Source: a virus
Length of the DNA stretch: 35,555 nucleotides
Direction: 5' to 3' (one strand)
Virus record (IMG/VR): IMGVR_UViG_3300048583_000185
Coordinates: 1-35,555 of that record
This document shows positions 2,905 through 30,035 of this stretch, piece by piece (position 1 is the first letter of the stretch; the number at the start of each line of letters is the position of its first letter). The notes under the pieces were generated by a model. It had not been told where the DNA came from, ran no database searches, and saw only the letters and a program-made list of their open reading frames with translations. Position numbers and translations under genes: made by a program.

Positions 2905-3542
2905 CGACACGCATCCCGAACCTGCGCGGCAAAGACCCGATGCTGATCGGCATCTGCGGTCGGGCCGGTACCGGCAAGACGGCTGCTGCCGAGTACCTGA
3001 TGGCCCGCCACCGCTTCGAGGTGGCAGCCTTTGCCGACGAGCTGAAAGACCTGCTCGCGCTGCACTTTGAAACGCTGGGCGTCGACTATTCGCATCTGCA
3101 TGAGCCGACGCTGAAGAACGCGCCGCTGCCGGGCTTTGGCTTCGTCGCCGGCCCCGTCACCGCCCGCATGCTCATGCAGACTCTGGGCGACTGGGGCCGC
3201 GCGATCGACCCTGACTGGTGGGTCAACGCCCTGGCGCATCGCGTGGGCTTGCACGACGCGACCCAAGGCTCTTCGGGTTCCCATACACCGATCCACGATC
3301 GCATCTGCATCAGCGATGTGCGCTACCCGAACGAAGCCGAGTGGCTGATCGAGCGCGGGGGCGTGCTGATCCGGCTGCAGCGCGAACAGGCCCAGGCCGT
3401 GCGCGCGCACAGCAGCGAGAGCCACATCGACGAGCTGCCGGCGCACATCGACCTGTACAACGAGGGGCCGACGCTGGCCGGCTTTCATGCGCTGCTCGAC
3501 GGTGCGCTGGCCAGCGTGGGCGTGGATGCGACAGCGCCATGA
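2901..3542 (+). CDS. P-loop dNMP-kinase-like protein
   Basis: Walker A LIGICGRAGTGKT. AFADELKD and ICISDVRYPNEAEWLIERGGVLIRLQR match the phage deoxynucleoside-monophosphate kinase family pattern (xxDVRFPNE). Confidence 0.65.
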   Translation: MTTRIPNLRGKDPMLIGICGRAGTGKTAAAEYLMARHRFEVAAFADELKDLLALHFETLGVDYSHLHEPTLKNAPLPGFGFVAGPVTARMLMQTLGDWGRAIDPDWWVNALAHRVGLHDATQGSSGSHTPIHDRICISDVRYPNEAEWLIERGGVLIRLQREQAQAVRAHSSESHIDELPAHIDLYNEGPTLAGFHALLDGALASVGVDATAP

Positions 3543-4120
3543 GCCACGCAACCGGCACTTACCTGGGCGGCATTCGAACGATCGACTGCCTGCAAAAGCG
3601 TAGCCACGTCTGCCCCGACACCGACTGCTGGCACTGGCGCATGGCCATCGTGCAGGGCACGCCCAAGGTCCATTTCACAACGCCGGACAGCGGCCGAAGC
3701 ATCAGCATGCGCGGCCGCCGCGCGGCGCTGTACCTGCTGCGAGGCATCGACGTGCCCGCCGGGCATGTGGCCTACCCGCGCATGACCTGCAAGAGCCGCG
3801 ACTGCGTCAACCCGGCGCACTCGACCAGCGGCGACCGAGACGCACACGGGCTGTGGCTGCGCAAGACCGGCGCCGTGGCCGGGCTGGCAAGCAAGTGCGC
3901 CGGCAGCCGCAAGGGATGGGAAGGCCGGCGCAAACTCACGCCCGAGGCCGTGGCCGACATCCGCTCGAGCGCCGAGAGCAACCTGGCATTGGCCGCCCGC
4001 TGGGGCGTCAGCCAGTTCGCCATCTGGTCGTGTAGGGTGGGCCAGACACACCGCAACGCGGTTGCCGGCAGCAGCGTTTTCAACTGGATACCAGCAGCAC
4101 AGATCGGGCGGCGGTCATGA
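3539..4120 (+). CDS. HNH-like (degenerate) DNA-binding protein with C-terminal HTH
   Basis: CWHWRMA...RRAALYLLRG...TCKSRDCVNPAHS resembles phage HNH_3-type proteins (CxNPxH). The tail KLTPEAVADIRSSAESNLALAARWGVSQFAIWS is the usual HTH appendix. Confidence 0.5.
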   Translation: MSHATGTYLGGIRTIDCLQKRSHVCPDTDCWHWRMAIVQGTPKVHFTTPDSGRSISMRGRRAALYLLRGIDVPAGHVAYPRMTCKSRDCVNPAHSTSGDRDAHGLWLRKTGAVAGLASKCAGSRKGWEGRRKLTPEAVADIRSSAESNLALAARWGVSQFAIWSCRVGQTHRNAVAGSSVFNWIPAAQIGRRS

Positions 4121-4521
4121 CGGATCAGTCAGACGCTGAGCACCCGCCTGCCACTGCCGGCGCCGACCCATTCGCCTGCATGGCCTCCGTCTTGGCCAAG
4201 GACAGGCCGCAGCAAAGCTGGATTACCGCCCCGCAGGTGACGCCGCTGCCAGAGGGAACCACCCGCGTCTCGGCGATGCTTTCGCTGCTGGCGACCGGCG
4301 GGCAATCTGCGGCCGAGCTGGCTGCGGCGGCTGGCGGCATTCCCACTGGGGCAGTGAGTGCGCTGCTGCACTCCCGCATGGAGCGCGGGCAGGTTCGGCG
4401 GGAGTGTGGAATCTATGAGTTGGTCCCTGAGTACGAAGACGAACTACACGCCAAGCTCAAGGCGGCCGCTTTGTGGCTGCGAGAGCACGGGTATGTGGTC
4501 AGCAGGGAGACGAAAGCATGA
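4117..4521 (+). CDS. Hypothetical protein with a probable winged-helix domain, 134 aa
   Basis: ATGA overlap. VSAMLSLLATGGQSAAELAAAAGGIPTGAVSALLHSRMERGQVRRE looks like a MarR-type wHTH. Confidence 0.55.
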   Translation: MTDQSDAEHPPATAGADPFACMASVLAKDRPQQSWITAPQVTPLPEGTTRVSAMLSLLATGGQSAAELAAAAGGIPTGAVSALLHSRMERGQVRRECGIYELVPEYEDELHAKLKAAALWLREHGYVVSRETKA

Positions 4522-4784
4522 GCAGCGTCAAGAAGCCCGTGCGGCTGGAGCTGAACAACAGCGGAAGCTGGAAGGTGATCGGCCGCTTCGAAGCGGCAGA
4601 CGACGAGCAGAGCAGTTTGGTGCTGGATGCGGCCGAGGAACTGATTAAGACGCTGCACAACAGCGAAGACCCGAAGCGCTGCCCGACGATGCGGGTGAGC
4701 ATGGACGGCGGTCTGGGGAGCGTGCTTTTGCGCTGGAGCTTGGTCGACGGATGGCGGGATGCGGAGACGGGCAGGGCGGCCTAA
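4518..4784 (+). CDS. Hypothetical protein, 88 aa. Its TAA stop lies inside the GCCTAAC box of the distal attC.
   Basis: ATGA overlap at 4518-4521. Protein-like composition (MSSVKKPVRLELNNSGSWKVIGRFEAADDEQ...). Confidence 0.6.
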   Translation: MSSVKKPVRLELNNSGSWKVIGRFEAADDEQSSLVLDAAEELIKTLHNSEDPKRCPTMRVSMDGGLGSVLLRWSLVDGWRDAETGRAA

Positions 4785-4832
4785 CGCCTAGCTCACCGGC
4801 CGCTTGCGGTCCGGTGCAGCGCGGTGTTATGC
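4779..4832 (-). other. attC site (distal, 54 bp)
   Basis: Minus strand: GCATAAC-ACCGC-GCT[G]CACCGG[A]CCGC-AA-GCGGCCGGTGAGC-TAGGC-GTTAGGC. It has a 13-bp stem, two extrahelical bases 7 nt apart on the R''/L'' arm, and unpaired 5-nt spacers. Confidence 0.7.
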
Positions 4833-4857
4833 GTGTGGTTCCGAAGCGTGGAGATGT

Positions 4858-5913
4858 ATGAATGAGTTGGCTCTTTTCGCAGGCGCTGGTGGCGGAATAC
4901 TCGCAGGCCACATGCTGGGCTGGCGCACCGTCTGCGCAGTTGAGCGTGATGCCTACGCCGCACAAGTTCTGGCGCAACGACAGAACGATGGAGCCCTCCG
5001 ACCATTCCCGATTTGGGCTGACGTGTGCGGCTTTGACGGAAGACCGTGGCGCGGACTTGTTGACGTGGTTTCGGGGGGCTTCCCTTGCCAAGACATCAGC
5101 GTTGCCGGCAAGGGCGCCGGCATTGACGGAGAGCGCAGCGGCATGTGGAGCCACATGGCGCGGATCATTGGCGAAGTTCGACCCCGCTTCTGCTTCGTGG
5201 AGAACAGCCCAGCCCTCGTTACTCGGGGACTCGGAAGAGTGCTCGGTGACCTGGCCGCGCTCGGGTATGACTGCCGGTGGACTGTGCTGGGAGCTGCCGA
5301 CGTTGGCGCCCCCCACCAGCGCGACAGGTTCTGGCTTGTGGGTGCCGACACCCTGCGCGACCGATGCGAAGCCGATCACGGGCGGGAACCTTTACGTGAC
5401 GGAAACGGGCACGGTGCGACACATGCGGCCGGATGGCAAGAGCAGCAACCGGGGCCTTGCAGCGAGTGCGGCCATGTGGCCGACACCCACCAGCAGCCTG
5501 GGCACGAACGGCGGCCGTGTGACGCCTGCCAAGGCTCTGGAAGGCGGGACGCTGATAGAGGCGCTGAGTGCGCGGACCACTTGGCCGACGCCGACCGTAT
5601 GCGACAACTACAACCGCAAGGGAGCCAGCGCGACCAGCGGGGACGGGCTTGCCACTGCGGTGCTGAAGTTTCCGACGCCTTCGACGCTTGGCATCAATGG
5701 CGGCAGTCATTCTCAAGCGGCGGCAGTGAAGCGCGGCCAGGCGGTGACGGAAGTCAATGGTGGCTCGCTGAACCCGACGTGGGTCGAGTGGCTAATGGGG
5801 TGGCCTATCGGGTGGACCGACTTAAGGCACTCGGAAACGGACAGGTGCCCCGATGCGCAGCCACAGCCTGGCGAATGCTCACTGGTGGCATGAGCGACAC
5901 GCATAACGGCTGA
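4858..5913 (+). CDS. dcm: DNA (cytosine-5) methyltransferase, 351 aa (frame A)
   Basis: Motif I LFAGAGGG, motif IV GGFPCQDIS, motif VI FVENSPAL, motif VIII APHQRDRFWLVG, C-terminal motif X RLKALGNGQVP. GGAG at 4850-4853. The middle third (Arg/Asp/Gly/His-rich) looks poor in this frame. Confidence 0.7.
   Translation: MNELALFAGAGGGILAGHMLGWRTVCAVERDAYAAQVLAQRQNDGALRPFPIWADVCGFDGRPWRGLVDVVSGGFPCQDISVAGKGAGIDGERSGMWSHMARIIGEVRPRFCFVENSPALVTRGLGRVLGDLAALGYDCRWTVLGAADVGAPHQRDRFWLVGADTLRDRCEADHGREPLRDGNGHGATHAAGWQEQQPGPCSECGHVADTHQQPGHERRPCDACQGSGRRDADRGAECADHLADADRMRQLQPQGSQRDQRGRACHCGAEVSDAFDAWHQWRQSFSSGGSEARPGGDGSQWWLAEPDVGRVANGVAYRVDRLKALGNGQVPRCAATAWRMLTGGMSDTHNG
4862..5893 (+). CDS. Overlapping same-strand ORF in the +1 frame of dcm, 343 aa, with WPTPT repeats and a C-terminal LNPTWVEWLMGWPIGWT motif
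   Basis: ATG lies 8 nt after the same GGAG. Balanced composition throughout. Repeated (W/F)PTP(T/S) units. I recognise the C-terminal motif from phage methylase-associated proteins. It is unclear whether it is translated. Confidence 0.4.
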   Translation: MSWLFSQALVAEYSQATCWAGAPSAQLSVMPTPHKFWRNDRTMEPSDHSRFGLTCAALTEDRGADLLTWFRGASLAKTSALPARAPALTESAAACGATWRGSLAKFDPASASWRTAQPSLLGDSEECSVTWPRSGMTAGGLCWELPTLAPPTSATGSGLWVPTPCATDAKPITGGNLYVTETGTVRHMRPDGKSSNRGLAASAAMWPTPTSSLGTNGGRVTPAKALEGGTLIEALSARTTWPTPTVCDNYNRKGASATSGDGLATAVLKFPTPSTLGINGGSHSQAAAVKRGQAVTEVNGGSLNPTWVEWLMGWPIGWTDLRHSETDRCPDAQPQPGECSLVA

Positions 5914-5985
5914 GTTCAGCGGGCCGCGTGATGCGGCCTGAAAGTGCGGAGTCCGTGACGGCTCCGCTGCAACGATTGGTTAGGC
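5901..5985 (-). other. attC site (proximal, 85 bp)
   Basis: Minus strand: GCCTAAC-CAATC-GTT[G]CAGCGG[A]GCCG-(32-nt variable loop)-CGGCCCGCTGAAC-TCAGCC-GTTATGC. This is the same 5-nt/6-nt spacer and bulge geometry as the aadA1 attC. Confidence 0.75.
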
Positions 5986-6006
5986 CCTGGTGGCCGAAGG
6001 GGAAGA

Positions 6007-6255
6007 ATGATGAACACCAAAGAGAAAGCCGCGATGGATGCGGGCGTGCAGTTCGGCATGAACATGCTCAAACTGGTGCCAAGCGACGACAAGCTGGCGC
6101 AGGAAGCCCACATCACCGGCGTGCTGGTGGCATTCATGGGCGCGCTGTGGGGCACGCTGGGCACCGAGTACGCACGGGGCTTCATTGAGGCCCAGCTTCG
6201 CGGCATGGAGCCCGACAAGCCGCATGAGCGATTCACGGCGCCGCCCGTGCAGTAA
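6007..6255 (+). CDS. Hypothetical protein, 82 aa (cassette 1 ORF)
   Basis: GGGGAAG SD precedes ATGATG. Flanked by GTTAGGC (5979-5985) and GCCTAAC (6258-6264). Central hydrophobic stretch ITGVLVAFMGALWGTLG. Confidence 0.6.
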   Translation: MMNTKEKAAMDAGVQFGMNMLKLVPSDDKLAQEAHITGVLVAFMGALWGTLGTEYARGFIEAQLRGMEPDKPHERFTAPPVQ

Positions 6256-6257
6256 GG

Positions 6258-6318
6258 GCCTAACTTCAATTCGCCAACACCCTGACCACCTCCCCGTCGC
6301 ATAACACCGAGCCGCCGC
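6258..6318 (-). other. attI-like site
   Basis: Minus strand from the intI ATG: GTTATGC (6305-6299), GTTGGCG (6278-6272), GTTAGGC (6264-6258). All are direct repeats with no attC-type palindrome, comparable to the DR/L/R box layout of attI1 ending in GTTAGGC. Confidence 0.55.
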
Positions 6319-7350
6319 ATGCAAGTCATTGATCTGCCATTACCCGCAGCGGTTACGCACGACGCCGCTCCCGCGTTATGCGACGCGCCACCGAAGCGGC
6401 TTAAGCAGCTCATGCGCGAAGCCTGCGCGGTGCGCCATTACAGCCGGCGCACGTTCCAGGCGTACTGGCACTGGTCGAAGCGCTTCATCCTCTGGTCAGG
6501 TAAGCGGCACCCGCGCGACATGGGCCAGCTCGAGGTGTCCGAGTTCCTGACCTGGCTGGCCATCGAAGGCAACGTCTCAGCCAGCACTCAGCGCCAAGCT
6601 CTGCACGGCATCCTGTTCTTGTACCAGGCGGCGCTCGGTATCCAGATCGGCTGGATCGAAAACATCGTGCGGGCCAAGCAAGCCCAGCGACTGCCCACAG
6701 TGATGTCTGTCGACGAGACTTCGGCAGTGCTGGCGGCCACCAGCGGCACGCCTGGGCTTTTCCTGCGGCTGCTGTACGGTACCGGCCTGCGGCTGATGGA
6801 AGGTCTGCGCCTGCGGGTCAAAGACCTGGACATCCCCCAGCGATTGGTGATCGTGCGCGGCGGCAAGGGCGACAAGGATCGCGTCACCGTGCTCCCAGAG
6901 CGCCTCGTCAAGCCCCTGACCGAGCTGCTCGATCAGCGCCGCCGCTGGCACCAGATCGACATGGCCACCGGGCACGCCAGCGTTGACCTGCCACACGCGC
7001 TGGCCAAGAAGTACCTGCGCGCTGGCTCCGAGTGGCCCTGGCAGTACGTCTTTGCCACGCCCGAGTACCACGTCAACCCAGACACCGGCGAAGAGCGCCG
7101 TCACCACCTTTTCGACTGGACCATCCAGCGCGCCATGAAGGACGCGGTACGCGCTGCCGGCGTCACGAAGCCAGCCACCCCGCACACGCTGCGGCACTGC
7201 TTTGCCACTCACCTGCTGCAGGCCGGCACCGACATCCGCCGCATCCAGGAGCTGCTGGGTCATGCAGACGTCAGCACGACCATGATCTACACCCACGTCG
7301 CCTCCATGGGACACACCGGCGTGCGCAGCCCGTTGGACGCGCTTGCATGA
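6319..7350 (+). CDS. intI: Integron integrase (IntI-type tyrosine recombinase), 343 aa
   Basis: Collinear by eye with IntI1: HYSRRTFQAYWHWSKRFI, STQRQAL, LLYGTGLRLMEGLRLRVKDLD, GKGDKDR, ATPHTLRHCFATHLL, LLGHADVSTTMIYTHV, GVRSPLDAL. It also has the IntI-specific insert DLPHALAKKYLRAGSEWPWQYVFA (nt 6979-7056). Confidence 0.85.
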   Translation: MQVIDLPLPAAVTHDAAPALCDAPPKRLKQLMREACAVRHYSRRTFQAYWHWSKRFILWSGKRHPRDMGQLEVSEFLTWLAIEGNVSASTQRQALHGILFLYQAALGIQIGWIENIVRAKQAQRLPTVMSVDETSAVLAATSGTPGLFLRLLYGTGLRLMEGLRLRVKDLDIPQRLVIVRGGKGDKDRVTVLPERLVKPLTELLDQRRRWHQIDMATGHASVDLPHALAKKYLRAGSEWPWQYVFATPEYHVNPDTGEERRHHLFDWTIQRAMKDAVRAAGVTKPATPHTLRHCFATHLLQAGTDIRRIQELLGHADVSTTMIYTHVASMGHTGVRSPLDALA

Positions 7351-7586
7351 CCACACTCGACATCCCCGCGATTGCTGAGCTGCTTGGCGTCAGCGCTAAG
7401 ACCGTGCGCGACCGCTTGGTGCATCGGCCCGACTTTCCGCCGCCACTGCTTGCAGCCGGCCCTCGATCTCGCCGCTGGTGCGCCGCCGAAGTCACCGCCT
7501 GGGCGACGCCAGCCGCGCGGCGATCTCCTGCGCCGTCTCGCGGAAATACACCCGCAGCAGAAGCGACAAGTCCCGATGCCCGCTGA
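7347..7586 (+). CDS. xis: Excisionase/AlpA-like MerR-type HTH protein
   Basis: LDIPAIAELLGVSAKTVRDRLVHRPDFPPPL...RRWCAAEVTAW is the HTH_17/Xis pattern. ATGA overlap with the intI stop. The 3' 95 nt overlap the convergent integrase gene, so the true stop is uncertain. Confidence 0.6.
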   Translation: MTTLDIPAIAELLGVSAKTVRDRLVHRPDFPPPLLAAGPRSRRWCAAEVTAWATPAARRSPAPSRGNTPAAEATSPDAR

Positions 7587-8517
7587 TCCGTGCGAGCGTC
7601 AGCACATCGACGCGGCGCGACAGCATTGTCAGCGCCGTGGCTCTGGCGTCATGGAAATGCACATCGCCCAGCATCACAGAATCCCGCACTCGCCGGAATA
7701 GCGTGTCCAGGGTGGCTGAAGACAGCGGAAGCAGCCGCCCGTCATCACCCGCCGCCGCCTCCGCCAGCCAGCCCAGCACGCGCGCGCCCTGCGGAGTCAG
7801 CGGCACCAGGCGCCGACCGACAGCGTGCGCTGTCTTGTGGTCGGCCAGCGTCACTACGCGGCGTTGCAGATCGACGGAGCCAACGGTTAGGCCCATGATC
7901 TCGCCGGCCCGCATCGCCGTGCGCAAGCTGACCAGCAGCGCCCAGGCAACGCACTGCAGACCGGTCACCGGCGGCACTGCTGTCCGGTAATCGCAGCGGC
8001 GCATGATGGTGCGGATTTCGCGCCATCCCATGCGCCGGTCGCGCGGGATGGCCTCGGCGGGCATCCTGACGGCTCGCCAGGGCGTCGGCGACGGACTCCA
8101 GGCCCACTCGGTGCTGGCCACCGTCCAGACGTGCCGCAGGATGTTGATGTCGCGCTGCACGCTGGCCGGCGTCACGCGCTGCAGCCGGGCGTCGCGCCAC
8201 TGGCCGAGGTCGTCGGCGGTGATGGTGTGCAGCACCTTGCCGCACAGCGCAGGAAAGTCGCGCTGGATGGCCGCCAGGCGCAGCCGCTCGGCCCTCGCGC
8301 CGCGCTTTTCCGCCGTGATCTCGCGCTCGTAGCGGTCAAGCGCATCGGCCAGCGTCTTGCGCGGCCAACGGCTGACGGTGCCGGCAAGGATCGCCGCTTC
8401 TTCCTGCGCGGCCCATGAGCTTGCCGCAGCTTTGGTGCCGAAGGTGCGCGACGTCCGCACACCCTGGCGCTCGATCTCAACGCGCCAGCCTTTCGCCGTC
8501 TTGCGGTAATACGCCAC
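7492..8517 (-). CDS. int: Phage tyrosine integrase, 341 aa
   Basis: N-terminal arm-binding-type MAYYRKTAKGWRVEIERQG. Catalytic LRTAMRAGEI (R), HFHDARATALT (HxxR), GHRDLSLLLRVYF (H...Y). Adjacent to attP. Confidence 0.85.
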   Translation of the reverse strand: MAYYRKTAKGWRVEIERQGVRTSRTFGTKAAASSWAAQEEAAILAGTVSRWPRKTLADALDRYEREITAEKRGARAERLRLAAIQRDFPALCGKVLHTITADDLGQWRDARLQRVTPASVQRDINILRHVWTVASTEWAWSPSPTPWRAVRMPAEAIPRDRRMGWREIRTIMRRCDYRTAVPPVTGLQCVAWALLVSLRTAMRAGEIMGLTVGSVDLQRRVVTLADHKTAHAVGRRLVPLTPQGARVLGWLAEAAAGDDGRLLPLSSATLDTLFRRVRDSVMLGDVHFHDARATALTMLSRRVDVLTLARISGHRDLSLLLRVYFRETAQEIAARLASPRR

Positions 8518-8741
8518 GCGGGAATCCTTGCGGGACTGGCGCGGGATGACGCCGAGGTCTTGCGGGATTCTGCGCGGCGTTAGGCGGGATTGAGCCTAGG
8601 TATTTCGGGGTTGTGCGGGGCGTTGCGAGGTGCTATGCGGTGCAGGTTCTGGCGCCCCCGGCAGGAATCGAAAGCCTCGCCAGCGCTTGCGATCGACGGC
8701 ATAGGCGGGAATTGTGCGGGATGCGAATTAGGTCAGCCGAC
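8518..8741. other. attP region with arm-type repeats
   Basis: Six or more same-orientation copies of GCGGGA(T), starting at 8530, 8541, 8562, 8584, 8705 and 8715, plus a degenerate copy at 8614. They flank a tRNA-3'-end-like core. Confidence 0.6.
8650..8672 (-). other. attP core candidate: 3' end of a tRNA gene (T-loop, T-stem, acceptor stem, CCA)
   Basis: Minus strand TTCGATTCCTGCCGGGGGCGCCA reads as T-loop TTCGATT, stem CCTGC, acceptor CGGGGGC, discriminator G, CCA. The upstream bases do not complete a T-stem or the rest of a tRNA. Confidence 0.55.
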
Positions 8742-9251
8742 CTAACCGCGCCGCAAAATGTCATCTTTGCGCGCGCTGCCGGCGCTGCTGCCAAAGTAGT
8801 AGGCAACGATCGTACCCCAAGCGCCGCCCAGCGCGCCCAGCATGACCAGCAGCGCCTCGCTGCCGCGCTCTGGCATGCCGGCGGCCAGCAGCCAAGCGAG
8901 CACCCCGAAGAAACCCAGCGTCACGGCCGCAGCCAGCGCTCTCGGCGTCCAGTGGTCGCCGGTCTTGACTTCACGGTCACGCGCGTCAGACCGGTCAGCC
9001 TGATGCAGCTTCTCGACGTCGATATCCAGCTCGCGCATGCGCGTGGAAAACGCCTGATCAGCTTGCCGGATGGCCAGCAGCGCATCCGGCCCACCGGCGG
9101 TGACAGCTGCCGCCACATCGTCCACGGTGGCGTCTTCGCGCCCCAGTAGCTTCGCCGACAGCGCGGCCACTGCCGCCCCTGCAAGCGGTCCGCCAAGCGC
9201 CGCGGCCAGACCAGGAGCTACCGCGCCAACGACATCTTTCCAGTCCGCCAT
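8742..9251 (-). CDS. Holin, 3-TM GTA-type, 169 aa
   Basis: AGGAGG SD precedes the ATG at 9251. Gly/Ala-rich N-terminus, then TM segments LAAAVTLGFFGVLAWLLAAG and ALLVMLGALGGAWGTIVAYYFG. Lies immediately downstream of the endolysin. Confidence 0.6.
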   Translation of the reverse strand: MADWKDVVGAVAPGLAAALGGPLAGAAVAALSAKLLGREDATVDDVAAAVTAGGPDALLAIRQADQAFSTRMRELDIDVEKLHQADRSDARDREVKTGDHWTPRALAAAVTLGFFGVLAWLLAAGMPERGSEALLVMLGALGGAWGTIVAYYFGSSAGSARKDDILRRG

Positions 9252-9253
9252 GG

Positions 9254-9721
9254 TTACACCTCCTGCAAGTTCGCGGCGATACGCCGGGCCCAGCCGCGCC
9301 CAAAGCTCGGCCAGGTCGGCAGGTCGGCCATCAGCGCGAGCCTCTGCCCGTTGAATCGAGCCAGCAGGCGCGGCGCAGGCATGCTCTGCACGGCCTGCAG
9401 CGTCCGCGGCCCGAGGATGCCGTCGACCGTCTCGCCGACGCACCGCTGCAGCATCCGCACCGCGGTGCTGACACCACTGTTCACCGCGCAGTCAAAAAGG
9501 TGCAGCTTCAGAGAGTCGGGCACAGCGTCGCAGCCGGCAGGCCCCCAGTAGTCGCGCCGGTAGATGGAGCGCGCCTGGTCCACCGTAAGCGCTGCGATGT
9601 CAAGCTGCGGGTAGCTGCGCTTGCTGATCCCGTACTTGCTTTCGCCGCCCGGGTCCGCGCGGTGATTGATGTAGCCGCCCTCGTGCTTGACCAGGGCCGC
9701 GAAGGCTTCGTCGAATGTCAT
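9254..9721 (-). CDS. Endolysin, glycoside hydrolase family 108-like with a peptidoglycan-binding C-terminus
   Basis: TFDEAFAALVKHEGGYINHRADPGGESKYGI is the GH108 N-terminal signature (EGGY...DPGG.T.YGI). Confidence 0.8.
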   Translation of the reverse strand: MTFDEAFAALVKHEGGYINHRADPGGESKYGISKRSYPQLDIAALTVDQARSIYRRDYWGPAGCDAVPDSLKLHLFDCAVNSGVSTAVRMLQRCVGETVDGILGPRTLQAVQSMPAPRLLARFNGQRLALMADLPTWPSFGRGWARRIAANLQEV

Positions 9722-9732
9722 GACCACCACCC

Positions 9733-10014
9733 CTACTCAAACAGCCGATACACCCGCAACGCCACCGCCTCGCCGGTCCAGGTACCGGTCGGCAGCGTCA
9801 CCTTCGCCTGCAGCTTCCATTCGCCGTTCTGGTTGAAGGTGTCGACGAGGCTGACGAACCGCACCTTGGTGGTCTCAACCACCGTGGCTGCCCAGCTCAC
9901 CGTGGTGCCATCCGGCCGCCGCACCTCGATGCTCTGCGCCGTTGCACCAGTCAGGCTGACGCCGGTGTCGAGCTTCAGCTCGGTGCCGGTGTCGCCCATG
10001 TAGACCTTGGTCAT
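9733..10014 (-). CDS. Hypothetical beta-rich protein, 93 aa
   Basis: Clean ORF with protein-like composition. Sits between the receptor-binding region and the lysis genes. Confidence 0.55.
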   Translation of the reverse strand: MTKVYMGDTGTELKLDTGVSLTGATAQSIEVRRPDGTTVSWAATVVETTKVRFVSLVDTFNQNGEWKLQAKVTLPTGTWTGEAVALRVYRLFE

Positions 10015-10018
10015 GCTT

Positions 10019-10180
10019 TCACTCCAGGTAGATCGGTGACGGCAGCGTCACCTGGCGCGTTACCGGGCTGCCCAGGGCCAGCGCTTGAACCAGTTGGCTG
10101 TCGCCTGAGACCTGCAGTGTCGCCAGCGACATCGCCGCCACGGCAACGGTCATTGACGACGACAGGGCAATGGTTTCCAT
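10019..10180 (-). CDS. Hypothetical small protein, 53 aa
   Basis: ATG lies 2 nt after the stop of the upstream gene (TGACCATG). METIALSSSMTVAVAAMSLATLQVSGD... Confidence 0.4.
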   Translation of the reverse strand: METIALSSSMTVAVAAMSLATLQVSGDSQLVQALALGSPVTRQVTLPSPIYLE

Positions 10181-12607: not shown

Positions 12608-12636
12608 TTTCCATGTGCACGTTTTCCGCGCATACT
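12608..12636 (+). promoter_or_regulatory. Candidate promoter of the lipoprotein moron
   Basis: TTTCCA (12608-12613), 17 nt, CATACT (12631-12636). The ATG at 12645 is only 8 nt downstream and has no SD, which implies a leaderless or near-leaderless mRNA. Confidence 0.3.
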
Positions 12637-12644
12637 TTGCTGCC

Positions 12645-13178
12645 ATGAAACATGCACTGATCTTCTGCGCTATCTTGATGCTTGCCGGGTGCGGCGGCGG
12701 TGAATTTGAGGAAGAGCCGGAGCCGACTTCTGTCTCGATTCCGCTGGCCGCTTCGTCGGCAGAGCCGGACACTTGGGTTGCCAATGTTCGAGCCCTGACA
12801 GACAGACAGCTTGCGCGGACCTCGTGGCAAAACGCCACCGCTGAGGCCGTCGCGGTCGATGTCGTGCTGACCAGCAACCGCACGCTCACCGCCGACGCCT
12901 TGATGTCTGGCTCCGTGCAGCCGATTGCCTTTCTGAGTGTGCTCATGATCGAGCGCAACCAGTTGGCAGGCCCGCCGTTCAGCGGCTCATTCGACACGCC
13001 GCCCGTGTTCGCGGGCCAGTCCGTCGCCTGGTCAGAATCCGTCTCCTGGCGCGTCGTTGTGCCGCCAGGAGAATCAATCGAGGTGGTGTCGATCGCCAGA
13101 CTGCTGCCGATCGACTCGAACGGGCAGGCGACGCTCATCACGCGCAATCTGTCTCTGTCCGTGAACCCGGCGCCGTAG
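12645..13178 (+). CDS. Lipoprotein (moron), 177 aa, opposite strand to all surrounding structural genes
   Basis: Signal peptide with lipobox MKHALIFCAILMLAGCGGG. Visibly lower GC than its neighbours. Stop is 1 nt from the convergent stop of the host-specificity gene. Confidence 0.75.
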   Translation: MKHALIFCAILMLAGCGGGEFEEEPEPTSVSIPLAASSAEPDTWVANVRALTDRQLARTSWQNATAEAVAVDVVLTSNRTLTADALMSGSVQPIAFLSVLMIERNQLAGPPFSGSFDTPPVFAGQSVAWSESVSWRVVVPPGESIEVVSIARLLPIDSNGQATLITRNLSLSVNPAP

Positions 13179-13179
13179 C

Positions 13180-16131
13180 TCATCGCTTCACCGCCGTAAC
13201 TCGCAAAGTCAGGCCAGTGGTGTGCAGCTCGATGTTGCCGGTCGAGCCCACAATCGGGATCACTCGCGTATAGCTGGCGAAGCTGTACTGCTTGCCGACT
13301 GGCACCACTATGGTGATAGTGGTTGCCTCTTGGTAGTACACCACTTGGCTCGCCGCGAGGGCCTGCACCTGAGACTGCAGCCAGTCCTGCGTGCTTGCAA
13401 CCACCCCGCCGTCCGTGACGTTGGTGATAAAGACGCGGCTCTGAACAATCGTCGTTCCCAACAGGCCGGCTGGCGCGGTCACTCGACGGCCGGCGGTCAC
13501 CATCACCTCGACGTCGACGTCGGCAGATGTGTTGTTGGTGTATGAAATCGTCGCAAAGGTCCGATCTTGAACGCCGAACGAAAAAGGATATGAATAGGTG
13601 TCCGTGTTGACAGACATGCTCTGAATCTCTGTCGCAGAATTCGCAGCAAGCCCGCGCGTGCCGATTGGCAGCGCCACCCAGGATGCGCCATCCCACCGAT
13701 AGAGCCGGTTCCCGTCGTCGCTGTCCATCCACAGATCGCCCACGCCGTCAGCTGTAGGCGCGGTCGTCGCCACGAACGTGACAACCTTGCCATCGGCGGT
13801 GGCCTGCGCATCGGCAATCGTGCCGTCCCGAACGCTGATCCAAGCGCCAGCAGTGCGCAGGTATTCGTGGTTCCCAGCGTCCGTGTCGAACCAGGTGTCG
13901 CCGTCGAGTGACTCAGGGCCGGTTGGCTCGCTGGCCTGCCGAAACACCTTCGGCGCCCGCGTCGCGTTGACCTCATACACGACCTGCGGGGACCACGGCC
14001 CACGCACCCGCAGCGCGTTGATCGCACGCACCCGGAACACGTAGCGGCGGGCCAGCAGGCCAGGAATGATCGCCTGGGTGCTGTCGCCCTGCTCCGGCCA
14101 GCTAGGCCACTCACCGACGGGCAAAGCGGAGGCGGCCGGCACATATTGAATCTCTATGCTTCCGCCGCGCCGGATCGACTGCGAGACGGCAGCATTCCAA
14201 GTTACGCGCGTGCGCACGATCACGCTGCCGTCCGTCAGGGTTGCCGTCCCGCTGGTGATCGTCAGGCCGGTTATCGCCTCGACATCCCACGGCGCCGGCA
14301 GTGACGAGTTAGGCGCAGGATCAACGCCGCGCAGCTCGGCGACTGGCGTAAAGATGTCGGCCGTGATCTCGGCCAGCGATAGCTGCGGCCCCTGCGTTGG
14401 ACTCCAGCGGCAGCCGATCACCTCGAACGTCTTGCCGGCCATACCGTAGCGTGGCAGCGTCACTGTGCCGACGTCATACAGTTCGCAGCGGTAAGCGTCC
14501 AGGCTGCACGATGCTTCCATCCTCAGCGCCGCCTGACTCTCCCGGATGGCGATGGTCCCCAGGTGCTGCGCGTGCGCGACGTGGTTGACAGCCTGCAGCT
14601 CCACCTCAAGCGGATAGCTGCCTTCGTTGGCGATCAAGGTCGCATCCTGCACAGCCGGGAATGGGAGCGCTTGATACCGCTGCGAGTCATCGACGCAAGT
14701 CCCGGTGACGCGGTTGACCTTGCTGTCGCGCTGCACGCCGTTGGTGATCCGAACGACGCTGCTGCCGTCAGGGTTGCCGTCTTGGTCCAGCCGCTGCGCG
14801 ATCCAGGACGGGTCCATTGCCCAGACAGGCGTGGCCATCGTGCCAGCCCGCATGCGCAGCGTGCCACCGGCCCAGCCGACGCGGCCAGCCATCGCCTCGA
14901 CAATCTCCGACATCATCGCCTGCGGGTCGGCGTCGGTCGGAATCACGATGCCGCTGCGGTAGCGTGGCAGTGTCGGCGTTGTTGTGCTGCCGTCAGCATT
15001 TCGCAGCGTGAAGACCGTCGAGACATCGCAGGCATTGGCCGCCGCGATCACGTCGGCCGCGCGTATCTCGTCGAATGGCACATCCCACCCGTTGACGTGG
15101 CGCGCGTAGTGGTATGCGTGCAGCGCAGGGTTCTCTGAGAATGTCCAGGTGCTAGGCGTAGCGATCCGCTGGCTGCCGCTGCCGCCTGGCACCGTGCTGT
15201 CGGCGCGCGGGTCATAGACGCGAGCACCGCGCAGAACTGCGGAGATGTTGGGGATGCTCTGCGGGTATATGTCCGGGTCATACCAGAGATCGACCACCGC
15301 AAGCGCGATGCCTGCGAAGCGGTCGGCGCTGGTGATGAGGCCAGGGTACTCGGCGGCCAGGTCAGCCCCGACGTTTTGCGCTGCCGTCCCGATGTAGGGT
15401 CGAATGCGCGCGAAGAATTGACTCTGCGCCGTCTGCCACTGGATGTAGGCCGTGCCGCCAGCACCGCCGCCGCTCAGCGTCACCGACGTGCCGGAAACGC
15501 TGACAGCCAAGCCAGCTTCTACGTAGTCAATGCCGACGCCTGAACCGACCTGCGATGAAGCCGTGACCGCCGTGCCTGCAGCCGGCGTGCTTCCGATCGT
15601 GAAGGTGCCGCCGCCGCTGCCATCCAGCGTGACACTCAGCGATTGACTGACCAGGCTGGAGCGAGAGTAGGGCGCGTTTGTGACGTAGCCGCTGCCGTCC
15701 AACGACAGCGCTTCGTCAGCGAAGTAGAACGTCTCGAAGCCGTCAATCTCGTAGCCTGCGAAACTGACGATCAGCGTCAGCCGGTCGTCATTGAGTCCGC
15801 TGGACCACCGCCGCCGGATACCCTCGACCGTGCGCACGCGACCCATGACGATCGTGCGCGCCGCTTCCGGCACCACGTCGATCATCTGGATGCGGTCCTT
15901 CAGGCTCGCGTTGTATGCGTCGCGGGCCTTGCGCTTGGCCGAGCGCTGCCGGTTGATGTTGTAGCCGGTGATCGCGCTGAATAGCACGATGCTCGCGCCA
16001 TAGCTGACGATGAAAGCCGCCGCCGCGTTGCCGATGAACGGCGCCAGGAACAGCAGCGAACTGATCGGATCGGCATGCGCCGGCAAGGCCATCAGCAGGC
16101 CGCACAGCAGCACCAGAACGCGCGGGCTCAT
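13180..16131 (-). CDS. Host-specificity / central tail fibre protein (lambda J / GTA g15-like), 983 aa
   Basis: N-terminal hydrophobic region followed by RIQMIDVV...TIVMGRVRTVEG. NISAVLRGARVYDPR is J-like. Size and position after the NlpC/P60-like protein fit. ATGA overlap at 16128-16131. Confidence 0.8.
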   Translation of the reverse strand: MSPRVLVLLCGLLMALPAHADPISSLLFLAPFIGNAAAAFIVSYGASIVLFSAITGYNINRQRSAKRKARDAYNASLKDRIQMIDVVPEAARTIVMGRVRTVEGIRRRWSSGLNDDRLTLIVSFAGYEIDGFETFYFADEALSLDGSGYVTNAPYSRSSLVSQSLSVTLDGSGGGTFTIGSTPAAGTAVTASSQVGSGVGIDYVEAGLAVSVSGTSVTLSGGGAGGTAYIQWQTAQSQFFARIRPYIGTAAQNVGADLAAEYPGLITSADRFAGIALAVVDLWYDPDIYPQSIPNISAVLRGARVYDPRADSTVPGGSGSQRIATPSTWTFSENPALHAYHYARHVNGWDVPFDEIRAADVIAAANACDVSTVFTLRNADGSTTTPTLPRYRSGIVIPTDADPQAMMSEIVEAMAGRVGWAGGTLRMRAGTMATPVWAMDPSWIAQRLDQDGNPDGSSVVRITNGVQRDSKVNRVTGTCVDDSQRYQALPFPAVQDATLIANEGSYPLEVELQAVNHVAHAQHLGTIAIRESQAALRMEASCSLDAYRCELYDVGTVTLPRYGMAGKTFEVIGCRWSPTQGPQLSLAEITADIFTPVAELRGVDPAPNSSLPAPWDVEAITGLTITSGTATLTDGSVIVRTRVTWNAAVSQSIRRGGSIEIQYVPAASALPVGEWPSWPEQGDSTQAIIPGLLARRYVFRVRAINALRVRGPWSPQVVYEVNATRAPKVFRQASEPTGPESLDGDTWFDTDAGNHEYLRTAGAWISVRDGTIADAQATADGKVVTFVATTAPTADGVGDLWMDSDDGNRLYRWDGASWVALPIGTRGLAANSATEIQSMSVNTDTYSYPFSFGVQDRTFATISYTNNTSADVDVEVMVTAGRRVTAPAGLLGTTIVQSRVFITNVTDGGVVASTQDWLQSQVQALAASQVVYYQEATTITIVVPVGKQYSFASYTRVIPIVGSTGNIELHTTGLTLRVTAVKR

Positions 16132-16529
16132 GCCAGCACCTCCGACAGCGGCCAGGCTGCCTGCGCGTGATCCAGGCGACACAGCACAACCGCGCCGGCT
16201 GCCGACAGCACCGCGCCGGCCTGGACGTGGAGCCGAATCCCCAGCGCGCCACAGCCAGACTCACCTGGGAAGAGCAGGATGTCGCCCGGCGCGCTGCGCA
16301 TCGGGTCGATGTGCTGACAGCGCAGAAGCTCGCTTGTCAGAGCAAGCATGCCGCCGGAGTCATCGACATAGCGGCACCACTCGCGCATGCCTGACACGCG
16401 CGGCATGGCATCAAGCGCCGGCCGGCCCGTGGCGCGCTCGATCCAGCCGGCCACGAATGCGCCGCAGTGGTGCGTCTGCCAGTCGAACCGGCGCGGCCAG
16501 GCGGCGAGGTATTCGGTCAGGGCAGTCAT
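16128..16529 (-). CDS. Tail-tip NlpC/P60-like peptidase (lambda K / GTA g14-like), 133 aa
   Basis: WQTHHCGAFVAGWIERATG and GDILLF fit the Cys-peptidase pattern of this tail protein family. Synteny supports the call. Confidence 0.6.
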   Translation of the reverse strand: MTALTEYLAAWPRRFDWQTHHCGAFVAGWIERATGRPALDAMPRVSGMREWCRYVDDSGGMLALTSELLRCQHIDPMRSAPGDILLFPGESGCGALGIRLHVQAGAVLSAAGAVVLCRLDHAQAAWPLSEVLA

Positions 16530-17095: not shown

Positions 17096-18255
17096 CAGTA
17101 CACCTCGACAAACTGGAGATTGATCGCCGACTGATAACGGCCCGGCAGGTATTCGATGGCGCCCACGGAGTCGCCGACGAGCTGGAAGTTGCCGGTTGGC
17201 TTGGTGTAGAGCACGGCTGCATCCAATGCCAGCGCTGTGCGCAGCGGCATCGCAAGCGGCACGGTCATGATCTCGCTCTCGCTTTCTTGTCCGCCTTGAT
17301 AGCCGACGACAAGAAGCTGCGAGCCGACGCCGATCACGTCGCCAGGCGCCAGAAAGGCTTGCGGCTCATATGGCCGCAAGGCTGCGCCTAGCGTCACCTG
17401 CGCGCCGAAGCAAGTCGCGCCGCCGGTGCAGGTCACATTGCCGCCCGCCAGACCATGAAAGTCGAAAGCAGGCGCGATGGCAATGTAAAACGACGTCGCG
17501 CTGTCGTTGGCAATCGTGATCGAAAAACGCCAGTACCTGCGATCTTCTGATTCTGTGACTGCCGTGGCTCCGGCTCCAAATACGCCGAGCACCGCACCGG
17601 TATCCGTGTTGAACGTAGATTGCTGAATGTTTGCGCCGGCCTGCGCAAACAGTGCGACCGTGTTCGATGTTCCGCCCGAAGTTTTCAAGACGAAGACGCT
17701 GACACTGTAGACGTCAGTATTGGCTGCGATGGTTTCAGTGAAGACGCCCCAGTAACCGATAGCGCTGGTGTTGAAGTCGGCGACGTTTTCTGCCGTGATA
17801 GCGCTGGTGTTTGCGCCGGCCGCGACGTTCGGGTCTGCCGTACTGACGCCGAAAGTGCCGGCCCACGGAGCGCGGTTGATCCGCTCGCCGTTGCGAATGA
17901 TTGATGAACCCGGGAGCGCGTTCTTGATCGTGATGCTGCGCGCACCAGTAACGGCCGCCGCCGCGATCAACGGACTGCCGCGCATCGTGCCGGCCGGGAT
18001 TGGCCGCTGCATGTGCCACAGCCGCACCCAGTCGCCAGCGCTGGCAAGCTGCAGCAGATACGCCTCGCGCGCCGCTGCCTCCGCATAGGTGCAAGGCGGC
18101 AGCGTCATGTCGATGCGCAGCCGGTCGCCGAAGTGGCTGACGCTCTGTTGCTGGCCGGTGAAGAACGACGCCCAGGCGCTTCGCGGCGTGCTGGCCGAGA
18201 AAGCAAAGCGCGACGGACTCCAGGCGCGACCGACAGGCCAATCAAGAATGGCCAT
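17095..18255 (-). CDS. Distal tail protein (lambda M / GTA g12 position) with an inserted central domain, 386 aa
   Basis: Directly follows the tape measure gene (TGATG overlap). The middle ~150 aa is Thr/Ala/Asn/Gly-rich and beta-like, and its DNA has lower GC. Confidence 0.55.
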   Translation of the reverse strand: MAILDWPVGRAWSPSRFAFSASTPRSAWASFFTGQQQSVSHFGDRLRIDMTLPPCTYAEAAAREAYLLQLASAGDWVRLWHMQRPIPAGTMRGSPLIAAAAVTGARSITIKNALPGSSIIRNGERINRAPWAGTFGVSTADPNVAAGANTSAITAENVADFNTSAIGYWGVFTETIAANTDVYSVSVFVLKTSGGTSNTVALFAQAGANIQQSTFNTDTGAVLGVFGAGATAVTESEDRRYWRFSITIANDSATSFYIAIAPAFDFHGLAGGNVTCTGGATCFGAQVTLGAALRPYEPQAFLAPGDVIGVGSQLLVVGYQGGQESESEIMTVPLAMPLRTALALDAAVLYTKPTGNFQLVGDSVGAIEYLPGRYQSAINLQFVEVY

Positions 18256-22858: not shown

Positions 22859-23415
22859 GCGTAGGTCCGCACCGGGTCGAGCAGGCTGCGCAGCAGCGGG
22901 TGCGCGGCGTCCTTGGCGTTCAGGGCCGGATCATGGACCAGCACGGTCACCAGCGCCTTGATGAAGGTCTTCACGCACTCCGGCACGGTGGCGGCGTCAG
23001 CGGCACCGCTGGTGACGTCCAGGCGCACGCGCGGGCCGATCGCGATGTCGCCCAGTGCCGGGAACGAACCCGCCAGCGGCGGCACGACAGAGAACCCGCC
23101 CTGCACGATGCCCCAGGCCACTTGCGCGGCATTGGTCAGCGTCACCCACGCCGCGCCGTTCCAGTAGCTGACGGCCACCGCGCTGGGGCGGTAAACCGGG
23201 AAGACGTCAGCAGCGACAGGCCAGTCGGCGAGCTCGATGCGCCATGTCTGCGCGATGAAGCGCAGCCCGGTCTCCTGCTCGGCCACCTGGCGCGCCGCGA
23301 CGATGCCGGCACTGACGATCTCATCCCACTCCACGCCATCGACGCGGGCGGCGATCTTGGCCTCGCTCAAGGCGACGGGCTCGATGACGGGCGCGCTCAG
23401 CAAGTACATGCTCAT
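22855..23415 (-). CDS. Head-tail connector (gp6-like) protein, 186 aa
   Basis: Position downstream of the capsid block. EAKIAARVDG...IVAARQVAEQETGLRFIAQTW resembles DNA-packaging/connector proteins. Confidence 0.6.
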   Translation of the reverse strand: MSMYLLSAPVIEPVALSEAKIAARVDGVEWDEIVSAGIVAARQVAEQETGLRFIAQTWRIELADWPVAADVFPVYRPSAVAVSYWNGAAWVTLTNAAQVAWGIVQGGFSVVPPLAGSFPALGDIAIGPRVRLDVTSGAADAATVPECVKTFIKALVTVLVHDPALNAKDAAHPLLRSLLDPVRTYA

Positions 23416-23416
23416 G

Positions 23417-23575
23417 TCAGTAGAACCGGTCGCCGTTGACGACGACGATGCACTTTTCGCCGTACTGGGCGCGGCGCAAGGTGGCCCGCAGGCAGAACGT
23501 GAGAGCCTCCAACTGGCGCATGACCTGCTCCGTCAGCAGTGCGATGTATTGCTCTGCTTGTTCGGCGGCGGTCAT
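23417..23575 (-). CDS. Hypothetical small protein, 52 aa
   Basis: ATG lies 2 nt after the upstream stop. MTAAEQAEQYIALLTEQVMRQLEAL... Confidence 0.4.
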   Translation of the reverse strand: MTAAEQAEQYIALLTEQVMRQLEALTFCLRATLRRAQYGEKCIVVVNGDRFY

Positions 23576-23577
23576 GA

Positions 23578-24861: not shown

Positions 24862-24871
24862 GGTGCTTTCC

Positions 24872-25111
24872 TCACGCCTTCTTGGCGCGCTTGGCGGCCG
24901 GTGCGGGCTCGCTCGTTGAAGGGGCGGCTTCGGCAGCCGGCGCAGGTTGGGCAGCTGGCGCCGCCGAGGCCTCGCTGTCTGCGTACTTGGCGCAGCGCGC
25001 TTCTTCCACGAAGTGCTGCGCAGCTTCCGCGCCGCAGCGCAGCCGGTCGCCGGCCGAGAAGCTGCCGAAGACGGCGCTGTGGCCGGTGTGGGTGAACTCG
25101 ATGAGGCGCAT
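24872..25111 (-). CDS. Hypothetical protein, 79 aa, with an Ala/Pro-rich basic tail
   Basis: AGGAG SD right after the post-capsid hairpin. MRLIEFTHTGHSAVFGSFSAGDRL... Confidence 0.5.
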   Translation of the reverse strand: MRLIEFTHTGHSAVFGSFSAGDRLRCGAEAAQHFVEEARCAKYADSEASAAPAAQPAPAAEAAPSTSEPAPAAKRAKKA

Positions 25112-25154
25112 GGGTTGCTCCTGCGGGCCAGCCTGCGCCGGCCCGCAAACCGGC

Positions 25155-26345: not shown

Positions 26346-26371
26346 TTCAGTTTCCTTTGAAGAAAGAAGAA

Positions 26372-26389
26372 GGCCGCCCGATGGCGGCC
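26372..26389 (-). terminator. Hairpin GGCCGCC-ATCG-GGCGGCC followed by TTCTTCTTTCTTC (minus strand), between the protease and capsid genes
   Basis: Read directly. The T/C-rich tail corresponds to 26359-26371. Confidence 0.5.
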
Positions 26390-26410
26390 GGTTGCTGCGG
26401 TGTTGCTGCT

Positions 26411-30028: not shown

Positions 30029-30035
30029 GCGCGCG

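Follow-up and report, generated by a model that had tools for sequence, protein, structure and literature searches.

Integrons are generally regarded as bacterial devices for stockpiling gene cassettes, residing on chromosomes or on plasmid- or transposon-borne platforms, and recent work has shown that many of their cassettes encode anti-phage defences. Integrons are also carried by phages. A screen of 10,705 GenBank phage genomes (Qi, Rajabal, Ghaly, Tetu and Gillings 2023, Front Microbiol, PMC9892861) yielded, in temperate phages, a complete integron three times and an In0 once, as well as 17 attC clusters, including some in virulent phages, with methyltransferase cassettes. The cases of that study, among them the Vibrio anguillarum phages p16 and p42 and the Shewanella prophage M16-3, comprise a captured segment of a chromosomal integron (in a Vibrio prophage), an orphan intI lying at the edge of a prophage, and a cryptic prophage, and IntI1 was reported to recombine phage attC sites. 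Class 1 integrons on phage-plasmids, a transposon-borne case, are attributed in the same paper to Pfeifer et al. (2022). Here we analyse a further virus, IMG/VR record IMGVR_UViG_3300048583_000185, positions 1 to 35,555; this whole stretch of 35,555 nt is called the window below. With a probability of roughly 85%, the window carries a genuine phage-resident and structurally complete integron at the 3' end of a rightward early operon, directly upstream of xis and int. A first-pass annotation, made from the sequence alone, had proposed this integron on the premise that no integron platform had been described in a tailed-phage genome, a premise that is outdated in view of the report of Qi et al.

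The integron consists of the following parts, with cassette limits that assume crossover at G/TT:

6319-7350, + strand: intI, integron integrase, 343 aa (from TIGR02249, Pfam and alignment to VchIntIA)
6258-6318, - strand: putative attI region; core box GTTAGGC (6258-6264 read in reverse complement); crossover point between 6264 and 6263
5907-6263, - strand: cassette 1, 357 bp, from the attI junction to the G of the attC1 R' box
5901-5985, - strand: attC1, 85 bp, with GCATAAC at 5901-5907 and GTTAGGC at 5979-5985 (models R2 and R1)
4785-5906, - strand: cassette 2, 1122 bp, the interval between both attC crossover points
4779-4832, - strand: attC2, 54 bp, with GCCTAAC at 4779-4785 and GTTATGC at 4826-4832 (models R2 and R1)

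The intI product matched the NCBIfam model TIGR02249 'integron integrase' with 417.6 bits (E 3.5e-125), far above the cutoff of 265, and contains the Pfam domains PF13495 and PF00589, while the XerC, XerD and XerA models scored 146-158 bits, all under their own cutoffs of 220-335. A full-length alignment with VchIntIA of Vibrio cholerae (PDB 2a3v; residues 32-341, E 5e-74) ran across the IntI-specific segment and paired W241 of the window protein with W219 of VchIntIA; the Xer proteins are without this segment, and the XerA alignment fell into two pieces that skipped it (residues 209-259). The catalytic R-K-H-R-H-Y motifs are complete (TGLRLME, GKGDKD, HTLRH, LLGH and MIYTHV). As the Xer scores were sub-cutoff and the IntI insertion is present, the identification of this ORF as XerC/XerD or as an ordinary phage integrase was rejected. 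The first-pass annotation had recognized IntI by eye, and this held: all seven peptide strings that it quoted are in the translation. It was also right about the presence of the extra segment but not about its start at 6979, since DLPHALAKKYLRAGSEWPWQYVFA spans nt 6985-7056 and begins six bases later. The exact protein has been recorded once, on the present contig, where JGI annotated it as 'integron integrase'.

The attC sites were located with two covariance models. Model R1 was built from only four class 1 sites (aadA1, aadA2, psp and qacH), taken from the P1 phage-plasmid MH445380, and both strands of the 35.5-kb window were scanned with it, with filters off. Model R2 was derived from 101 attC sites found by R1 on other contigs, the window being excluded. 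The top R1 match was 4779-4832 on the - strand (26.5 bits, E 1.8e-5) and the second was 5906-5980 on the - strand (16.1 bits, E 0.032); apart from the reverse strand of attC2, R1 gave no further match with E <0.1 on either strand of the whole window. R2 recovered both sites at full length on the - strand with exactly the limits given above, attC2 at 51.1 bits (E 7.4e-11) and attC1 at 50.3 bits (E 1.2e-10), the highest unrelated score in the window being 13.6 bits. The - strand was clearly favoured for attC2, whose opposite strand scored only 26.5 bits with R2 and 13.9 bits with R1. In a class 1 array that served as a positive control, R2 recovered the aadA1, aadA2, psp, qacH, cmlA1, estX and dfrA attC sites, all on the gene strand. 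Two other procedures were discarded: a search for RYYYAAC...GTTRRRY pairs with a folding-energy filter returned the true sites together with many false ones (86/72 upstream versus 36/37 downstream, strand preference being absent) and was replaced by the covariance models, and an ungapped two-block position weight matrix caught attC1 but missed attC2 because of spacer indels.

The predicted folds carry the hallmarks of attC sites of the aadA type. For attC2, the + strand folds into one hairpin (-16.6 kcal/mol): the R box is followed by a 2x2 internal loop and an L box of 3 bp, then by a bulged C and a bulged T separated by 6 bp, and finally by 3 bp closed by a 4-nt loop; both bulges lie in the 3' arm of the + strand, i.e., on the bottom strand, 6 nt apart, as in aadA-type attC. 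The arms of attC1 (R''-spacer-L'' and L'-spacer-R') are similar to those of the aadA1 attC, its variable central part forms two hairpins, and its extra-helical base, read against the folds, is likewise on the 3' arm of the + strand. This bulge geometry indicates that the top strand is the - strand, divergent from intI as in canonical integrons. Taken together, the two models and the folds pick the same two palindromes, on the same strand, that had been proposed by eye at 5985-5901 and 4832-4779.

On the attI side, GCCTAAC occupies 6258-6264 of the + strand, and 54 nt separate this box from the intI ATG. Nucleotide homology with four relatives (L001-L004) begins at 6256-6259, with none upstream, the closest relatives by IntI being 95%, 81% and 77% identical. 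Two blocks between the box and the intI ATG are conserved, namely TTCAATTCGCCA(A/G)CAC and GTCGCATAACAC. The start of the homology at the box bears out the earlier observation of a GTTAGGC box at the attI position, divergent from intI, and the region 6258-6318 is predicted to function as attI. With crossover at G/TT, the cassette sizes of 357 bp and 1122 bp given in the first-pass annotation also proved correct. The first six bases of cassette 1 (TTAGGC) are the perfect complement of its own R'' box (GCCTAAC), those of cassette 2 (TTATGC) are the perfect complement of its own R'' box (GCATAAC), and in both cases the adjoining array R' box has one mismatch. This complementarity would fit IntI-mediated exchange at G/TT, though as a pattern it is statistically weak and, with two box variants, would arise about once in four times by chance. 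The locus thus combines a member of the IntI clade, at least one attC site near intI, and an attI with its array 5' of intI, with a divergent top strand.

Each cassette contains a gene on the + strand, and within one of these genes lies a second reading frame:

6007-6255, + strand: orf82, small conserved phage protein of 82 aa, antisense to the top strand of cassette 1
4858-5913, + strand: DNA cytosine-5 methyltransferase gene (PF00145, TIGR00675, phrog_363), antisense to the top strand of cassette 2
4862-5893, + strand: second ORF, 343 aa, +1 frame, wholly within the methyltransferase gene (phrog_1008)

Relative to the attC top strand, both cassette genes are antisense, and they run in the direction of the early operon and intI, a point that the first-pass annotation had missed. 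A Shine-Dalgarno-like AAGGGGAAG for orf82 directly follows attC1, and GGAG, 7 nt ahead of the methyltransferase ATG, directly follows attC2. The small gene orf82 (GC content at third codon positions, GC3, of 0.84) has about 300 homologues at 70-95% identity, none of them named, and gave no family match in Pfam, NCBIfam or PHROG. Its homologue in L167 is a cassette between two attC sites, and in L168/L169 it is an ordinary early gene, with attC absent, beside methyltransferase and terminase genes. As this gene is found both as a cassette and as a plain phage gene, the cassette pool overlaps the phage gene pool. The methyltransferase matched PF00145 (E 8.9e-31), TIGR00675 (E 3e-23) and, over its entire length, phrog_363 (E 1.9e-66). 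Two attC sites enclose the homologous gene in both L056 and L019, and in L020/L023 it is the first cassette; in all of these, an attC site is located just upstream of the gene start, and attC sites were also found around the homologue in L055.

The contig that carries the orf82 cassette, L167 (JADJQB010000027.1), is a phage-like contig of 34,881 bp from a Betaproteobacteria metagenome-assembled genome (MAG), with ERF and Sipho_Gp157 genes. At 4230-7529 its - strand bears six attC sites, the genes in between being on the + strand, which makes it an attC cluster in a phage early operon; no intI was found within the 12.2 kb examined.

The second reading frame of the methyltransferase locus begins with MSWLFS, has WPTPT repeats and an EWLMGWPIGWT motif, and matched phrog_1008 'DNA methyltransferase' (E 2e-33). 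In all homologues examined (L056, L020/L023, L055, L019 and a Salmonella phage) the two frames are both open and conserved, and the idea of a frameshifted pseudogene or a sequencing error was rejected for this reason. In the Salmonella phage, the P22-like S9-5 (MW722521, L166), the frames at 1500-2234 and 1504-2247 overlap with 244 and 247 codons, and the annotation covers only the first of them. The locus may therefore represent a two-subunit or dual-coding methyltransferase, and no report of an overlapping-frame methyltransferase was found in the full-text literature searched. Over 240 bp (4859-5100), this phage of 66% GC has 82-86% nucleotide identity to Salmonella, Klebsiella and Acinetobacter phages, and this stretch was the only match in a megablast of 4000-9000 against GenBank phages. 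Such identity is unusually high for hosts so distant and fits either a two-frame constraint or a recent transfer.

The inverted orientation is not confined to the window. In a survey in which cassettes were delimited by R2 and orientation was counted only where ORF length and GC3 agreed, de-duplicated viral contigs carried 50 canonical and 82 inverted cassettes (62% inverted), whereas chromosomal loci carried 101 canonical and 10 inverted ones (9%; Fisher p = 1.2e-18 versus viral). The JGI and NCBI gene calls concur on the orientation for L162, L164, L167 and L170, and in L170 all five of the five cassette genes are inverted.

A different arrangement was observed in L080, L106, L107, L120 and L155, where intI is followed, on the same strand, by the attC sites in an 'inverted integrase' layout; the detection of such loci indicates that the attC models are not tied to one arrangement. 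Virus Rctr41k (KX853513, L174), a GenBank member of Caudoviricetes that came from an enrichment culture, has a gene annotated as xerD whose product is an IntI relative (43% identical). At 4680-10101 it has five attC-like sites (23-27 bits with R2) and a weaker sixth (15.5 bits), downstream and on the same strand. That stretch also contains two methyltransferase-like genes, one or both of them flanked by attC-like sites. The locus resembles a phage integron with the 'inverted integrase' layout that has gone unrecognised.

Relatives of the phage provide a view of cassette turnover. An integrase 75% identical to the window IntI (P0048) was found on at least 24 JGI contigs. Over 6,000 bp from the start of intI onward, L170/L171, L172 and L173 show 100% identity, which also extends through attI; L172 stands for 14 more places. 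The point at which these otherwise identical sequences diverge is the AAC of the attI box. Upstream of it, three unrelated sequences are found, the junction reading GCATAAC followed by ACAAATTCG in one of them and GCCCAAC followed by ACAAATTCG in the two others. In L170/L171 (a cassette array) and in L172 (a cassette), attC sites delimit the variable sequence; in L173, no attC match was found in the 176 bp upstream of intI. This pattern looks like recent insertion or replacement at attI. For the window itself, we consider it fairly probable that this copy of the integron is active.

Two further observations concern array structure in relatives. In L004/L162, an attC site together with the sequence next to it is found twice, at a distance of 1,075 bp (attC at 7263-7366 and 8338-8441), within 7263-9110, where two successive blocks of an 82-aa and an 88-aa gene with matching attC sites point to a tandem duplication of two cassettes, of about 1.07 kb, in a prophage-borne array. 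Furthermore, 22 of the 80 viral contigs break off no more than 300 bp upstream of intI, and L001 (IntI 95% identical) ends exactly at the attI box; such breaks may reflect cassette arrays that differ within populations.

The replicon that carries the integron is a phage in its own right. The first 127 bp are an exact copy of the last 127 bp (35429-35555). An exact end repeat of this kind is the usual sign of a circular molecule assembled as a linear one, and the assembly is therefore circular. The window is the complete genome, with 35,428 bp of unique sequence, of a temperate siphovirus-like phage; the first-pass annotation, too, had called it a complete phage with an integrase of its own. 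The features outside the integron are as follows:

1-127, strand not applicable: direct terminal repeat, identical to 35429-35555
1728-1756, + strand: putative promoter-like site, TTGACA-17-TAGACT, with 10/12 consensus matches, heading the + strand operon that extends through the cassettes, intI and xis
7347-7586, + strand: xis-like helix-turn-helix (HTH) gene (PF12728 HTH_17, phrog_66), whose ATG overlaps the intI stop (ATGA)
7492-8517, - strand: phage tyrosine integrase (PF00589, phrog_1)
9254-9730, strand not stated: endolysin (PHROG)
13180-16182, strand not stated: tail fibre (PHROG)
18255-20264, strand not stated: tape measure (PHROG)
28310-30070, strand not stated: terminase large subunit (PHROG)
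32099-34789, strand not stated: primase/helicase (PHROG)

PHROG matches were also obtained for a terminase small subunit, a portal and a head protease. The phage integrase (PF00589 E 2.1e-13; phrog_1 'integrase' E 1.5e-38) gave no match to TIGR02249 and is thus not an IntI. The Xis-like protein scored 24.6 bits with PF12728 HTH_17, under the cutoff of 27, and matched phrog_66 'excisionase and transcriptional regulator' (E 2.5e-6). The integron is flanked by the early genes and by xis/int, and the same circle also carries structural and lysis genes. No tRNA was detected in a scan of the window, and no transposon or resistance genes were found among the ORFs examined. The host is probably a member of the Burkholderiales, the nearest named organisms by IntI being the Burkholderiales Rubrivivax and Hydrogenophaga; as species-representative genomes contained no IntI above 59% identity, the host can be assigned only broadly.

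The same position of the integron recurs across a diverged set of phages. IntI relatives were encoded by 188 IMG/VR contigs, of which 80 loci were fetched for comparison, and a homologue of the window tail fibre was present downstream of intI in 15 of the 80. L073, whose IntI is 53% identical, matches the window in its primase, tail fibre and tape measure genes and in their order, and carries nine attC sites. On a 429-kb scaffold (L162, IntI 77% identical), a VapE-type primase and cI/cro-like HTH genes are followed by a + strand operon, six attC sites, IntI, HTH_17, Int and the host genes lon-clpX-clpP-tig. As in the window, the HTH_17 gene of L162/L163 overlaps the intI stop by 4 nt; since a tblastn of the window Xis-like protein against all loci gave only the self match, this overlap involves a different HTH_17 sequence. 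A Hydrogenophaga MAG contig (L164, IntI 73% identical) has the same layout followed by host genes, with the HTH_17 gene absent between IntI and Int. The integron is inside the prophage boundary in both L162 and L164, and these two represent integrated forms of the circular phage layout seen in the window. By a regular-expression count, which sets a lower bound, 34 of 75 viral loci have a second tyrosine recombinase no more than 3.5 kb downstream of intI, versus 4 of 71 loci from species-representative genomes.

These observations suggest how such an integron might work. IntI would recombine the folded bottom strand of attC, which is here the + strand, with attI at G/TT, so that circular cassettes would be inserted beside intI and excised again by attC x attC recombination. 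As the cassettes are inverted, with their genes pointing to intI, the cassette genes would be expressed by read-through from the early promoter of the phage, each of them served by a ribosome-binding site just after its attC hairpin, and Pc would be uninvolved. The putative promoter at 1728-1756 lies downstream of the sole terminator-like site on the + strand (1676-1690), and no such site was found between it and 7586; cassettes, intI and xis could be expressed together. Because intI would be in the same transcription unit, its stop overlapping the xis start, IntI would be made on infection or induction, at a time when phage DNA replicates and single strands exist. The array may thus form an exchangeable store of phage accessory genes, in which the methyltransferase probably protects the phage DNA against restriction. 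In this scheme, the recombination activity of this copy, its transcription pattern and the roles of the cassette genes are all predicted from sequence.

Several points weigh against this interpretation. No relative that shares the early genes at 3542-4784 was found, which leaves the left end of the array with nothing to compare, and membership in IMG/VR is no proof of phage origin for every contig surveyed. The turnover was seen in relatives 75-81% identical, the exact IntI being known from one contig. The extra-helical base at the L box is a C (bottom strand) in both attC sites, where aadA-type sites have a G. Neither a Pc-like promoter nor a LexA box was found: a strict sigma-70 consensus scan gave no promoter-like site on the - strand around 6258-6500 or on either strand of the attI region, although weak promoters could escape it, and no CTGT-N8-ACAG occurs anywhere in the window. 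Cassette genes on the top strand and driven from Pc, as expected of a complete integron, are thus not seen here. The transcription scheme is deduced from one consensus promoter match and a lack of terminator-like sites, and the orientation calls are heuristic (ORF length and GC3), about a quarter of the cassettes being ambiguous.

Three other explanations were considered. As the window derives from a metagenome assembly, a fragment of a chromosomal integron might have been misjoined to a phage contig, a danger that had been pointed out from the start. However, the contig closes on itself by the 127-bp overlap, the junctions from the early operon through the cassettes and intI to (xis and) int recur in JGI, ENA, NCBI and Logan assemblies, including contigs of 429 kb and 130 kb, and L001, the closest relative, continues from intI into the same lysis and tail genes. 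The same gene order in integrated prophage relatives excludes a chimeric assembly, and the chance of an artefact is practically nil. An alternative hypothesis is that a piece of a host chromosomal integron was gained once, by illegitimate recombination or imprecise excision, and is now carried as inert cargo. The integrons of Vibrio phages have been read as captured segments of this kind (PMC9892861), and a single record of the exact IntI together with the missing Pc promoter and LexA box would suit such a passenger. Its position would not, as intI lies within the operon on the xis side of int rather than on the attP side, where imprecise excision adds host DNA, and the same position is kept in phages whose IntI proteins are only 53-77% identical, with the overlap of intI stop and xis start in two diverged members. 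Moreover, IntI is intact with complete catalytic residues, relatives with identical backbones vary only upstream of attI and hold an attC-bounded cassette there in L170/L171 and L172, and the cassette genes are of phage type and oriented for phage transcription. We thus consider a passive passenger very unlikely.

It is also conceivable that IntI serves mainly as a second integration system, which would bring the whole genome into host integrons or secondary sites by recombination of a phage attC with a host attI, or of the phage attI with a host attC, and that cassette exchange is a by-product. A circular genome with one attI and two attC sites is formally a substrate for this, a Vibrio prophage flanked by attC has been reported (Qi et al., PMC9892861), and a preprint (10.1101/2022.09.11.507474) reports IntI-mediated insertion of cassettes outside att sites. 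Nevertheless, the phage has its own Int and a Xis-like gene, the prophage ends in L162 and L164 adjoin the phage Int and ordinary host genes (lon-clpX and gyrA, respectively) without an integron, and the polymorphism among relatives is limited to cassettes at attI, leaving this function only a slim chance. The most likely explanation is therefore that the window carries a resident phage integron whose cassettes are exchanged at attI.

If this is true, phages use the same modular system of gene exchange on their own side of the conflict with bacteria, and infection and lysogeny would provide a direct route for cassettes between cells. The excess of inverted cassettes bears on how cassettes may be expressed without Pc and on where they originate, and can be tested by comparing phage arrays with chromosomal ones. 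A broader hypothesis, to which we give even odds, is that phage-resident integrons constitute a functional type of their own that is widespread among environmental temperate phages, both of the Burkholderiales and of other Proteobacteria. They would be characterized by an array at the end of the early operon beside xis/int with an intI co-transcribed with the phage genes and by predominantly inverted cassettes expressed from phage promoters, whose recombinogenic bottom strand is the non-template strand of an operon under heavy transcription. The array would be a store of rapidly exchangeable genes for accessory and counter-defence functions, methyltransferases among them, and the phage gene pool would be their source.

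Some further observations stand apart from these questions. In L164, an inverted cassette at 9489-9695 encodes a protein with the PF21825 'Sequestin' domain, and a group II intron reverse transcriptase is located at 12622-14265, just outside the phage integrase. In the window, GC3-based gene calls were inconsistent at 23400-27100, where a 583-aa ORF (25155-26906, - strand) overlaps the protease ORF (26411-27091, - strand) and no clear major capsid ORF was called; a crude gene caller or assembly frameshifts are possible causes.

By comparison with known systems, this integron is neither class 1 nor chromosomal but is at home in a lineage of temperate phages, with an arrangement and orientation suited to transcription by the phage. 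Like the phages of Qi et al. (PMC9892861), the window has intI, attI and attC-bounded cassettes inside a tailed-phage genome, and methyltransferase cassettes are prominent in both. It differs from them in that its lineage has a fixed intI position, mostly inverted cassettes, polymorphism of the first cassette and an overlap of intI with xis (in the window and L162/L163). In a tblastn against 50,697 GenBank phage records, IntI relatives were found in only 9, none above 53% identity, and the full-text literature searched, which does not cover all journals, contained no phage lineage with a resident integron, no enrichment of inverted cassettes and no cassette polymorphism in phage populations. 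Thus, the retention of intI at one position across a diverged phage lineage, the overlap of the intI stop with the xis start in the window and one 77%-identical relative, the predominance of inverted cassettes on viral contigs and the cassette polymorphism in otherwise identical phage genomes all seem to be new.

With class 1 integrons, including that of the P1-like phage-plasmid MH445380, the window shares an IntI that is 52.6% identical to IntI1, the aadA-like attC arms and an intI divergent from the top strand. This identity is, however, far below class level, the NF011946 score (355 bits) is below the cutoff of 435, Tn402, the 3'-CS, resistance genes and a Pc-like promoter were not found, and the window cassette genes are antisense, whereas in the class 1 array all cassette genes are on the attC strand; a class 1 mobile integron was rejected on the identity, the sub-cutoff score and the lack of a transposon or resistance context. 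A sedentary chromosomal integron usually has a long array of similar attC sites. The window is similar to such integrons, represented by the V. cholerae superintegron (2a3v), in the integrase fold, the IntI-specific segment and the mostly unknown function of the cassettes, and its relatives show cassette duplication. It differs in that the replicon is a circular 35-kb phage with two cassettes (up to nine in the relatives examined closely) and attC lengths of 54 and 85 bp, on which grounds this class was rejected as well; inverted cassettes, at 9% in chromosomal loci and 62% on viral contigs, and the absence of a LexA box in the window are further differences. Finally, the accessory-gene (moron) slots beside int-xis in lambdoid phages also lie at the end of the early operon and hold methyltransferase and small accessory genes under phage promoters. 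Unlike these slots, that of the window has its own site-specific recombination machinery, which would allow discrete gene exchange at a defined point.

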